Program-made: the position numbers and the translations under genes
Notes under the pieces: generated by a model
The model's database searches: none
What the model was told of the DNA's origin: nothing
The model's input: the letters and a program-made list of their open reading frames with translations, nothing else
Source of the DNA: Candidatus Heimdallarchaeum endolithica
GTDB taxonomy: Archaea; Asgardarchaeota; Heimdallarchaeia; Heimdallarchaeales; Heimdallarchaeaceae
Direction: 5' to 3'
Assembly: GCA_021513715.1 (NCBI GenBank)
Contig: CP084167.1
Coordinates: 1,440,001-1,504,000 of the forward strand
DNA length: 64,000 nucleotides
Part shown: piece by piece, positions 24,082 to 26,839 of the stretch
Position numbering within the stretch: position 1 is the stretch's first letter
How the letters are laid out: every line of letters begins with the position of its first letter

Positions 24082-24620
24082 TTACAATAAAGATTTTAGA
24101 GCTTTTCTATAATCATTAGTAGCTTCTTCAGGCATTGTTCCATTGATGAATATTCCTAGACTAGACTCTACAGCACCAAGAATTTTTAGTGACTGCTTAT
24201 TTCTCTGTGGACTGTGGAGTTTAAAATACATATGATAAATATTAGGACTTTCAGGAAAATTGAAAACTTTTTGATGAAGAGAAAGAGAATAACTTATTTC
24301 TTTACCAAATATTACAAATAAACTTTTAACTAGCTTTGGCAATAAGTTTGCAAAAGATACTAGCTCTTCTTGTCTACTCTCTTCCAATTTACTATAGCAC
24401 CTTTTTGGATAAATATATAGATCATAAGCATATTGAGCTGAAAAAGGAACAACTGCCATCACAAACTCATTTTCAAAAACAACCCTTAAATCAGTTTTTT
24501 TCTCAATTTCTAAATATTTACATATCATGCAAGCATTTTTTTATTTAAAAAATTTCCAATCTTTCTTAGTTCATTTTGAACAGTATGAGGAACAAATGAG
24601 AAAGCATAAATTTGCCCATG
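24082..24620 (-). pseudogene. galT: galT 3' fragment (galactose-1-phosphate uridylyltransferase) downstream of the insertion, with an additional 1-nt frameshift
   Basis: Resumes at 24620 as HGQIYAFSFVP...; the 7-T run at 24536-24542 is one base short of joining ...CMICKYL...VPFSAQYAYD...YSLSLHQ...GAVESSLGIFINGTMPEEA. Confidence 0.88.
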
Positions 24621-24820
24621 AGTTAATTTTTTGTACAATTTTCTCCTACTACGTCAGTGGAAGAATACAAACGCTAAAACAGATGTTTGAGCATACTGAC
24701 ATCATCTAGGAATCGTGGGACGCATAAAGAAGAGTAGAACTCTTCACTCCACGAGTACTAAGTATTCTACCATTATGGTATAATAGTACATAGGTCTATT
24801 TCAACCACTGGTTGAGACCC
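24621..24820 (-). ncRNA. Putative omegaRNA (reRNA) scaffold of the TnpB element
   Basis: About 175 nt between the tnpB stop and the element end, packed with nested stems: GTCAGT/ACTGAC, CAAAC/GTTTG, TCGTGG/CCACGA, GAAGAGT/ACTCTTC, GTACTA/TAGTAC, TACCA/TGGTA, TCAACCA/TGGTTGA. Confidence 0.65.
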
Positions 24821-26310
24821 CGGAAGGAAGTATAAAAGGTGAGACTAAAGTGTTGTCCAGTAAGATAATCAACTAGTGTAGATGCTCGGGGACGAAAAAG
24901 AAAACGAAGAAACAATTTCCCGATGTTGATTGCACAGGTAAGGTCAGAGTGAAGAGTATAATGGCAATGAGAACAATAAACAAGACCTCTAACAGGTCGA
25001 ATAGTCTTTCGTCCACATTTTGAGCAAAGAGAAGAGGTAAGATATTCCTGTAAGGTGAGGATACGTTCGGGTTCTAACCCATTTAGAAGACACATTCGTC
25101 GAAGAAGAGTAACTATTTGGTAGTAATTCCACGGGTGAACCTTTTTACGAGTAAAACGGGTAGAGGAGTTCTGTGGTCTGTAGTCTTGATTCATTACTTT
25201 TTTTCTTAATTTCGAGTGTACTCCCTTGGGGTAACCAACAACAACGACTAAATTATAATCCTGTGTAAGTTCAACAATATCTTTCCACAACTCATTAATA
25301 AAAGCATATAAATAAGCATGAGAGAGCGTCTGATATCTTTTTCTTAATTTTTTTAATGTTTGATATCCTTTATTGCTTCTTTTGTCTTTACATGTATTCT
25401 TCTTTTTTGCAAGTTTTCGTTGCAATCTTCTTATTTTCTGTTGATAGATATACTTCCTTTTTTTCCATTCTTTCATTTTCCAGAAGAAAATATGATTGGG
25501 AGATATTTTACCTGTTGATGTTAATAACACTCCTGCTCCAGGTATTTTTTCTCCCAGATCTATTCCCAGCACAGCTGGAGGAAGAAGAGAAGGGTCAACT
25601 TTTTTTTTCTTGTAGAGATCTGCTTGAGGAATAATTGTTATCTGAAAATTTACCCACCAACTGTTTTTTTGTGAGTTATATTTTAATTCTAGACTTTTTA
25701 CTTGTCCTTTTCTTATTTCTTTTTGGTGATATTCACTCATTTCTAGTGGTATCCATAGTCTTCGATGTGTTCGTTTTTTTCTTTTTTGTGTGTCTAATGA
25801 GTCTCTTATCCCTACCCAGCAACGAGAAAGAGTGTTTTTCCCTTTAGGCAAATGTTCTATGATAAATCTATTTTTATTGATTAGTTGTTTTCTTGTTCGT
25901 TTTACTGGTGGTAAAATATATCCTTTTTTTCTTTTTCTATTCTTTTTTTTGTTATATCCTTGTTCATAAAGTTGTACTGCTACATCTCTACACTCTTGAA
26001 ATTCATCGTGAGAACAATTAGGAAACTTTTTTTTGAGATCATAGGGTACAACTGTCCTTTTTTTCTTATTTGTTTTCTTTGTTGTTGTTAGTGTTAGTTC
26101 ATCTAACTTGCCTTTATGCACTTTTAGTCTTATCTCTCCTTGTTTGCTTATTTTTCTTATTACTTTTTCTTCTTCTTTTCTTATTATTTTTACATATTCT
26201 TCTATTATTCTAGTATCTCTTCCTGTTATCTTTCTCATTCTATCTTTTTTGAACTTCGTTAATTTTTCTGTTTTTACTCTTACTCTTAATGTTCTCACTA
26301 TTTTCTCCAT
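24796..26310 (-). CDS. tnpB: TnpB-family RNA-guided endonuclease with rearranged (Fanzor-like) RuvC-II
   Basis: RuvC-I VLGIDLG; canonical RuvC-II position reads VVVGYP (G instead of E); alternative Glu in LQEYLTSSLC; zinc finger CSKC...CSHC; RuvC-III HSDLTCAINI; highly basic, 504 aa. Confidence 0.9.
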   Translation of the reverse strand: MEKIVRTLRVRVKTEKLTKFKKDRMRKITGRDTRIIEEYVKIIRKEEEKVIRKISKQGEIRLKVHKGKLDELTLTTTKKTNKKKRTVVPYDLKKKFPNCSHDEFQECRDVAVQLYEQGYNKKKNRKRKKGYILPPVKRTRKQLINKNRFIIEHLPKGKNTLSRCWVGIRDSLDTQKRKKRTHRRLWIPLEMSEYHQKEIRKGQVKSLELKYNSQKNSWWVNFQITIIPQADLYKKKKVDPSLLPPAVLGIDLGEKIPGAGVLLTSTGKISPNHIFFWKMKEWKKRKYIYQQKIRRLQRKLAKKKNTCKDKRSNKGYQTLKKLRKRYQTLSHAYLYAFINELWKDIVELTQDYNLVVVVGYPKGVHSKLRKKVMNQDYRPQNSSTRFTRKKVHPWNYYQIVTLLRRMCLLNGLEPERILTLQEYLTSSLCSKCGRKTIRPVRGLVYCSHCHYTLHSDLTCAINIGKLFLRFLFRPRASTLVDYLTGQHFSLTFYTSFRGLNQWLK

Positions 26311-26403
26311 TTTCTAATCCTTTTTCTTCTTCACTTTCTTTTCTCTATTTATTAATTAAGCAATTTATTTAAAAACCTAAAGAATTTATACAAAAAATTT
26401 TTT

Positions 26404-26839
26404 CATGGGGGTGAAGAATTGAAGCACCTACATCTTTTCCAAAATTTTCGAACGGAAGAATATATTTTATTTTTTTATCTTCTTTTAGCTGTTTTGTTGC
26501 TTCTATCCATTTTTCAAAAATTGAGAGGATTTCATCTACCTTTAACTCATGAAATTTCTTACCATGGTCAGCACTATAAACTAGAACTTCACATTTACCA
26601 TAAGCACTTTTAGACTTATACAACTGATCCTCTTCTTTGCTCCAATAATCTACCTCTAAAGATAAGCTCGGGAATTTATTATCCAATCGAATAGGTTTAT
26701 TGATAAGGTCTTTGACTTCCTCAGAACCTTTACAAAAAGGGCAGAAATCCTTTTTCCTATCAGGTCTTCTTTGTCTTTTGGGTGCATAAATGATCCATTC
26801 ATCAAAAAAATAATTGTACCTAAGTTCACCCTCTGTCAT
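26404..26839 (-). pseudogene. galT: galT 5' fragment, ending at the HPH active-site motif
   Basis: ELRYN, APKRQRRP, CPFC, NKFPSL, GKCEV and FENFGKDVGASILHPH motifs, then reads into the element. Confidence 0.9.

Follow-up and report, generated by a model that had tools for sequence, protein, structure and literature searches.

Does an archaeon from the lineage nearest to eukaryotes carry an ancestor of the Fanzors? This question is raised by a gene for a 504-aa TnpB in a stretch of 64,000 nucleotides from Candidatus Heimdallarchaeum endolithica (contig CP084167.1, positions 1,440,001 to 1,504,000), which we refer to as the window. An earlier note on this DNA had described the protein as an active, pro-Fanzor-like nuclease that bears on the origin of Fanzors. 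We found that the TnpB of the window belongs, in well-preserved form, to a known nuclease class and that the ends of its carrier transposon are atypical. Probably it is an RNA-guided endonuclease of the so-called E-alt class, the sole gene of a 1.79-kb non-autonomous transposon, and acts by the mechanism proposed below. The pro-Fanzor reading is not supported.

The open reading frame (ORF) at 24796-26310 lies on the minus strand, like all features of the window described here. Its product matches the Pfam family PF07282 (Cas12f1-like TNB; 9e-9) and the NCBIfam model guided_TnpB with 9e-16, which is under that model's own cut-off. An AlphaFold2 model of the protein has a predicted local distance difference test score (pLDDT) of 79, and the best Foldseek matches of this model are AsCas12f (1.7e-14), the ISFba1 TnpB (6.5e-12) and the ISDra2 TnpB (2.7e-10). 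Model and Foldseek matches together show the TnpB/Cas12f fold with its WED, REC, RuvC and TNB parts. The motifs that the earlier note had read are each in place: GIDLG at residues 249-253 (D251, codon 25558-25560), VVVGYP at 356-361 (G359, 25234-25236), QEYLTS at 421-426 (E422, 25045-25047), CSKC at 429-432 and CSHC at 446-449 (zinc finger C429-x2-C432 ... C446-x2-C449, 24964-25026), HSD at 454-456 (D456, 24943-24945) and AINI at 460-463. The distance from G359 to E422 is 63 residues, as had been said. The protein thus has the split RuvC domain of a TnpB, with a D-E-D triad and a C4 zinc finger between RuvC-II and RuvC-III, the E being relocated.

Several alignments agree on this relocation, which the note had proposed. 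In an alignment with 31 homologues (23-54% identity), D251, G253, G359, E422, S426, the four Cys, D456 and N462 are invariant, and E422 is located six residues ahead of the first CxxC. When the profile of this alignment was compared with solved structures, G359 was the counterpart of the canonical RuvC-II Glu of AsCas12f (iqmEDL), and hhalign against three canonical cyanobacterial TnpBs (lvfENL) again put G359 opposite the canonical Glu. In both HMMER and hhalign alignments E422 stands opposite the Pro of 'dPxyTSq' in canonical proteins (AsCas12f 'idPqyTS' and the cyanobacterial TnpBs). A search with residues 390-475 alone paired E422 with E467 of the mimivirus Fanzor2 (9b0l_P, 'nvnEYLTtktC'), where EYLT is common to both proteins. 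In the AlphaFold2 model D251 ends strand 245-252, G359 ends strand 353-360, E422 directly follows strand 417-421 and D456 starts helix 455-472. This predicted placement of E422 matches the published topology with the Glu on beta-5 and not beta-4 (Altae-Tran et al.), so that the structure prediction suggested as a check agrees with the relocated Glu. The triad is D251/E422/D456, with Gly359 at the ancestral Glu position, which is the known E-alt (RuvC-II rearranged, RIIr) class, where a non-acidic residue (Gly or Pro) occupies the canonical RuvC-II Glu position. The pattern D{P}G..E-x6-CxxC-x12-18-CxxC-x4-8-D of Yoon et al. fits residues 251-456; its first spacer measures 168 here, beyond the published 120-160, because of an 8-residue insertion.

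The added length of the protein stems from an N-terminal insertion and from Lys/Arg-rich loops, not from Fanzor-like domains. Of the 100-150 residues in excess of the short E-alt TnpBs, one part is an N-terminal segment (approximately residues 36-105, with GRDTR..NEFQEC motifs), which is kept within the Asgard clade and was unmatched in the short E-alt TnpBs in hhalign comparisons. The other part consists of two loops, 121-135 and 365-393, that have low confidence in the AlphaFold2 model.

The relocated Glu itself is known biology, and other E-alt enzymes are not known to show trans-cleavage of single-stranded DNA. E-alt has been reported from two major TnpB clades and from eight branches, of which several are archaeal (Altae-Tran et al. 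2023, PMC10691335). A TnpB with E-alt from Thermoplasma volcanium has nuclease activity that depends on a target-adjacent motif (TAM), and in Fanzor2 the mutation E467A abolished cleavage (Jiang et al. 2023, PMC10530073). Since E-alt is known and widespread among archaeal TnpBs, it is no mark of a Fanzor ancestor. Fanzors and pro-Fanzors are defined by DPG in RuvC-I together with E-alt, a fingerprint carried by <1% of TnpB homologues, mostly cyanobacterial and IS607-linked; Yoon et al. set apart a second clade, which combines E-alt with D-hydrophobic-G (Yoon et al. 2023, PMC10711439). Published evidence on Fanzor origin favours the DPG-bearing IS607 TnpBs of cyanobacteria (PMC10711439).

The RuvC-I motif of the window TnpB reads GIDLG and hence lacks DPG. 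We collected 193 homologues by word-based and exhaustive searches, of which 85 fit the full E-alt/non-DPG pattern and 23 more, mostly fragments, have an E at the position before the zinc finger. DPG combined with E-alt was found in none of the 193, and the canonical Pro at the E-alt position was seen in the weakest matches only. No IS607 TnpA (model transpos_IS607) scored above the cut-off in the genome, so the IS607 association of pro-Fanzors and Fanzor2 is missing as well. In hhalign, the profile of the Asgard proteins scored 528 (E 7e-69) against short archaeal E-alt TnpBs from Bathyarchaeia, Methanomassiliicoccus and Conexivisphaerales, versus 238 (E 1e-31) against canonical TnpBs. Among solved structures, the profile matched Cas12f chains with 75-94 bits, ahead of Fanzor2 (54.6) and the ISDra2 TnpB (36.6), and Fanzor1 was not detected by sequence in this search. 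Fanzor2 and Fanzor1 ranked 17th and 46th in Foldseek. By these profile and fold rankings, the window TnpB is closer to Cas12f and TnpB than to Fanzors, and the sequence evidence places it with the E-alt/D-hydrophobic-G group rather than with the DPG group.

What speaks for a pro-Fanzor from the archaeal lineage nearest to eukaryotes is the Glu that the window TnpB and the Fanzors have in common, with its identical EYLT surroundings in the mimivirus protein, the host, an archaeon of the Heimdallarchaeaceae, and the inverted-repeat ends of the element, which resemble those of eukaryotic Fanzor-carrying transposons. Against it stand the DLG in place of DPG, the lack of any combination of DPG with E-alt among the 193 homologues, the lack of an IS607 TnpA match above the cut-off, the ranking of the Fanzors below Cas12f and TnpB and the link of the clade to short archaeal E-alt TnpBs. 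The family is moreover patchy: it is present in 31 of 151 sampled genomes of the phylum, mainly in two families (7 of 13 genomes of the window's own family and 19 of 26 of one other). We therefore regard this explanation as very unlikely. The part of the claim that called the protein a TnpB with a relocated Glu stood, while 'pro-Fanzor-like' and the proposed relevance to Fanzor origins did not.

A profile of distant E-alt TnpBs retrieved short archaeal E-alt proteins only, and a scan of viral contigs canonical-Glu TnpBs only. Cyanobacterial genomes, which were reached via a 16S primer pattern, were searched for PF07282, for IS607 TnpA and with the E-alt profile; the loci read there held canonical-Glu TnpBs or RuvC proteins lacking a zinc finger, and no protein with DPG and E-alt. 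At two of these loci (L293:2103-3560 and L304:1-1455), the genes adjoining an IS607 TnpA encode RuvC proteins of at least 485 aa that are open at the locus end. Their motifs include GxDINPG and a canonical Glu (IAIENLDF); they lack a zinc finger and are neither typical TnpBs nor pro-Fanzors.

The transposon that carries tnpB can be delimited to the base. Including the CATG at each junction, it spans 24617-26407 (1791 bp) and interrupts galT at the active site HPH|GQ. The upstream fragment of galT (26405-26839; PF01087, 6e-24) stops at the HPH motif and the downstream fragment (24082-24617) resumes with GQIYAF. The sister genome G026 has an intact galT of 326 aa with a single CATG at the insertion point. 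Relative to this gene, the galT of the window is broken a second time where an A-run near 24536-24542 has lost 1 nt; this deletion could alternatively be a homopolymer assembly error. Removal of the element from the galT transcript in the manner of an archaeal intron, via the complementarity of left and right ends, was considered and rejected, as no bulge-helix-bulge geometry was found.

The element is mobile. A second copy at 709 kb of the same genome, which is a single contig of 3.33 Mb, is 99% identical along the 1794 bases compared, with both ends falling on the same bases. The two copies differ at 14 positions, of which 7 are synonymous, 6 non-synonymous and 1 non-coding. Approximately 12 further copies (about 8 intact, several frameshifted or truncated) make up a subfamily at ~52% protein identity. 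The architecture is constant across these copies and relatives in other genomes: host sequence that ends in CAT at the left junction, an inverted-repeat core 4-6 nt behind CATG and tnpB, followed by a conserved 3' untranslated region (UTR), the matching repeat core and the terminus TAACTCAT (TAAATCAT in subfamily B). Beyond the terminus, which closes 11 of 11 aligned elements in one or the other form, a purine follows and similarity gives way to unrelated flank. In the window, the left junction CATG lies at 26404-26407 and the left core AATTTTTTGTATAA at 26386-26399, which is with one mismatch the reverse complement of the right core; the right core TTGTACAAAAAATT and the invariant terminus together cover 24618-24638. 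A TATA-like box at 26364-26375, read from the sequence, is the putative promoter of tnpB, and a box of the TTTTTATAGG type is conserved at this position in other subfamilies.

Before the left end, 14 of 14 copies of the own genome have CAT, and the relatives from the genomes G142 and G003 have CATG. The right end closes with the same CAT as the left junction, the repeats being imperfect, and at both junctions CAT is followed by a purine with a frequency far above chance. The repeat cores vary among subfamilies, where left and right co-vary; in the G003/G142 type, C predominates at the left end and G at the right. Since the two cores change together and are C-rich on one side and G-rich on the other, they are true inverted repeats and not the same-strand hairpins of IS200/IS605.

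The region between tnpB and the right end probably encodes the scaffold of an omega-RNA (24618-24830). Between the 3' end of tnpB and the right terminus the GC content is 0.40, against a background of 0.30, and the same region folds better than its shuffles (z -2.2). The core of the 3' UTR is nearly identical between subfamilies that share ~52% protein identity, and one of its hairpins differs in length among subfamilies with its complementarity maintained. For the window element and six related copies, RNAalifold pairs a conserved GUGGAGU with the right repeat core (ACUUCGC, ACUUUAC or AUUGUAC), with one-sided changes only; this pairing might close the guide-RNA scaffold beside the guide. Rfam gave no match and no omega-RNA family for the 3' region. 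By analogy with the TnpBs of IS605 and IS607, the galT sequence directly past the right end, from 24617 downward (24598-24617), would be the guide, and the ..CAT of the left junction, which is the last host sequence there and reads CCCCAT in both close copies, is the candidate TAM.

We propose that a transcript from the 3' end of tnpB crosses the conserved right end into the flank and would become the omega-RNA. The complex of TnpB and omega-RNA would then recognise a short motif identical to the left-junction sequence followed by a sequence that matches the guide. By cutting the unoccupied site, TnpB may favour retention of the element or its re-copying by recombination. Transposition itself would have to depend on a trans-acting enzyme, and the inverted-repeat ends speak for a mover that acts on double-stranded DNA rather than for the Y1 enzyme of IS200/IS605.

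Three observations weigh against this reading as a whole. No transposase fitting the element ends was found in the genome, where the repeat sequences occur only beside tnpB copies; the inverted-repeat pair of the window element, for instance, stands solely beside the two copies of its own kind. The covariation in the putative scaffold is thin, with double changes in 4 of 31 pairs among sequences that are close to one another. And the copy in the window carries G459C, at a site that is Gly or Ala in all relatives, as well as W164C.

The question of the mover leads to an alternative in which the element is an ordinary IS200/IS605 (IS1341-type) tnpB-only element that relies for its movement on the genome's Y1 TnpA acting in trans. 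The insertion right behind a short motif, the absence of a further duplication and the same CAT at the right end would fit peel-and-paste transposition, one Y1 TnpA is indeed present, and IS200/IS605 is a frequent annotation of short archaeal E-alt relatives, one of which is fused to a Y1 domain. However, IS200/IS605 elements have subterminal hairpins on one strand and no terminal inverted repeats, whereas the repeats here are truly inverted, as the C-rich left and G-rich right ends of the G003/G142 type illustrate. The only Y1 TnpA of the genome is part of a separate IS605-type element with unrelated, GC-rich hairpin ends, and the excess of purines after CAT at both junctions is likewise at odds with this explanation, which we judge improbable. 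The Y1 element (L021:281-1851, at ~924-925.5 kb of the own genome) encodes a TnpB of 403 aa that also has a relocated Glu (VIGDIKNI ... SEQYTSQTC), so E-alt occurs here with a Y1 partner too. IS607 elements, with their serine-recombinase TnpA, a GG crossover core and no inverted repeats, do not fit either, as the core here is CAT. Of two weak matches to serine recombinases (L022 and L023), L022 was inspected and rejected: it is resolvase-like, with no clear terminal-repeat pair and no tnpB-like ends. No transposase adjoins tnpB at 6 related loci, nor was a Cas1 found beside any of the six family loci that were examined; the genome has three Cas1 loci, and the two inspected have small ORFs around them and no neighbour the size of a TnpB. 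We tentatively consider, at odds clearly below even, that the Heimdall-type elements form an undescribed insertion sequence family, TnpB-only, with co-evolving inverted repeats, the TAACTCAT terminus, insertion at CAT|R (R, purine) and a mover of neither Y1 nor IS607 type that is not encoded beside any copy. If true, Asgard archaea would offer a prokaryotic counterpart to the way in which eukaryotic inverted-repeat transposons captured Fanzors.

A second set of alternatives concerns the state of the window copy, which may be weakened by G459C and W164C, to judge from conservation. Cys459 (codon 24934-24936), three residues past D456, replaces a Gly that the sibling copy and at least 90% of the homologues have, and canonical TnpBs have Ala there; the substitution is perhaps damaging. 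One could hence suppose that this copy is decaying, functionally impaired and en route to a pseudogene, in a family that is otherwise active. Both substitutions hit conserved positions where the sibling has the consensus, frameshifts or truncations affect several further copies in the genome, and the interrupted galT has acquired another frameshift, which means that the insertion is not of very recent date. Yet the ORF is intact with every catalytic and zinc residue present, about half of the differences between the copies are synonymous, which is compatible with purifying selection, and a Cys at a Gly/Ala position may be tolerated. On balance we hold decay to be rather unlikely; the consensus copy at 709 kb is the better candidate for an assay. 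That the protein is a domesticated, nuclease-dead regulator of the TldR type, the outcome that the earlier note had itself named as fatal to its claim, we find scarcely credible. Nothing but the absence of the canonical Glu suggests it, and the replacement Glu is invariant, both the D-E-D triad and the zinc finger are complete, and the gene exists in several copies, moves and has no fixed neighbour genes, unlike TldRs with their loss of catalytic residues and fixed, non-mobile context. The conserved catalytic and zinc residues and the 99% identical second copy point to a predicted functional nuclease rather than a dead TldR-like protein.

The nearest relatives of the window TnpB are found in Asgard archaea only, followed by the short archaeal E-alt TnpBs. 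Close homologues come from Candidatus Heimdallarchaeum aukensis or other Heimdallarchaeaceae and more distant ones from Thorarchaeota, and in the sample of 151 genomes the 504-aa subtype is confined to the two copies of the window genome. The Heimdall accessions do not appear in the supplements of the key TnpB papers. In the Thor-type relatives (30-35% identity), tnpB is followed by a conserved GGAACACAGRAGT, 5-14 variable nt and an invariant GTTCACTCA at 10 of 10 aligned loci (L040-L055, L025). A variable stretch and GTTCACTCA downstream of tnpB are the signature of the aCas1-linked 'Cas1H-Asgard' groups (Altae-Tran et al. 2023, PMC10691335). GTTCACTCA is absent near the window element, which is a relative of the Cas1H-Asgard group with a different right end and not a demonstrated member.

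Further observations were made on these relatives. At three loci (L025:450-4817, L335:240-5807 and L337:676-5820), Thor-type TnpBs lie ~190 nt from a divergently transcribed giant ORF (1455, 1855 and 1714 aa, respectively). The giant proteins have no Pfam domain and contain a stretch, GRVDL...ILDVKT, that resembles a PD-(D/E)xK nuclease motif; those of L025 and L337 are homologous (27% identity over 872 aa, E 5e-72). With the query used, no homologue of the giant protein was found in the genome of the window. Two fusion proteins were also seen: P0054 (852 aa) joins a MazE/AbrB-like N-terminal domain to an E-alt TnpB, and P0055 (736 aa, from a Heimdallarchaeota genome) joins winged-helix HTH_20/MarR domains to an E-alt TnpB. 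They are reminiscent of the toxin-antitoxin idea that has reportedly been put forward for RHH/MazE-TnpB.

Overall, the finding leaves the picture of Fanzor origin unchanged. It adds a clade of compact E-alt nucleases whose Asgard host is mesophilic and AT-rich, and because the element boundary is exact, the guide is predicted and a candidate TAM is at hand, a cleavage test would be straightforward. The end architecture fits neither IS200/IS605 nor IS607 and poses a small question for transposon biology.

Among known systems, the window TnpB is most similar to the E-alt TnpBs, also called 'TnpB2' or RIIr, such as TvTnpB (PMC10530073, PMC10691335, PMC10711439). It has the same Gly at the canonical Glu, the Glu six residues before CxxC, the D-hydrophobic-G in RuvC-I, the zinc finger and an archaeal host, and it matches the short members strongly by profile. 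It differs from them by its additional 100-150 residues, and from TvTnpB, which resides in an IS605 element with TnpA, by inverted-repeat ends and the lack of a Y1 TnpA. Like the Cas1H-Asgard-1 and -2 groups, it belongs to a TnpB clade restricted to Asgard archaea, and its Thor-type relatives bear GTTCACTCA, whereas the window element ends in TAACTCAT and no Cas1 lies beside the six family loci examined. Fanzor2 (mimivirus ApmFz2, PDB 9b0l) and the cyanobacterial pro-Fanzors have their relocated Glu where the alignment puts that of the window TnpB (E422 = E467) and share its overall TnpB fold, but the window protein has DLG for DPG, no IS607 TnpA and a Fanzor2 profile score that is below those of the Cas12f chains. 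As in IS607, one short sequence (CAT in this case) is present at each junction and a single time in the empty site, and the duplication extends no further; in contrast, IS607 has a GG core and no terminal inverted repeats (PMC6188088; PMC10711439). Finally, the DDE (IS630)-associated TnpBs of branch DDE-6 (Altae-Tran et al. 2023) likewise lie between inverted terminal repeats, but no DDE transposase was seen beside any copy here, and the target is CAT|R rather than TA.

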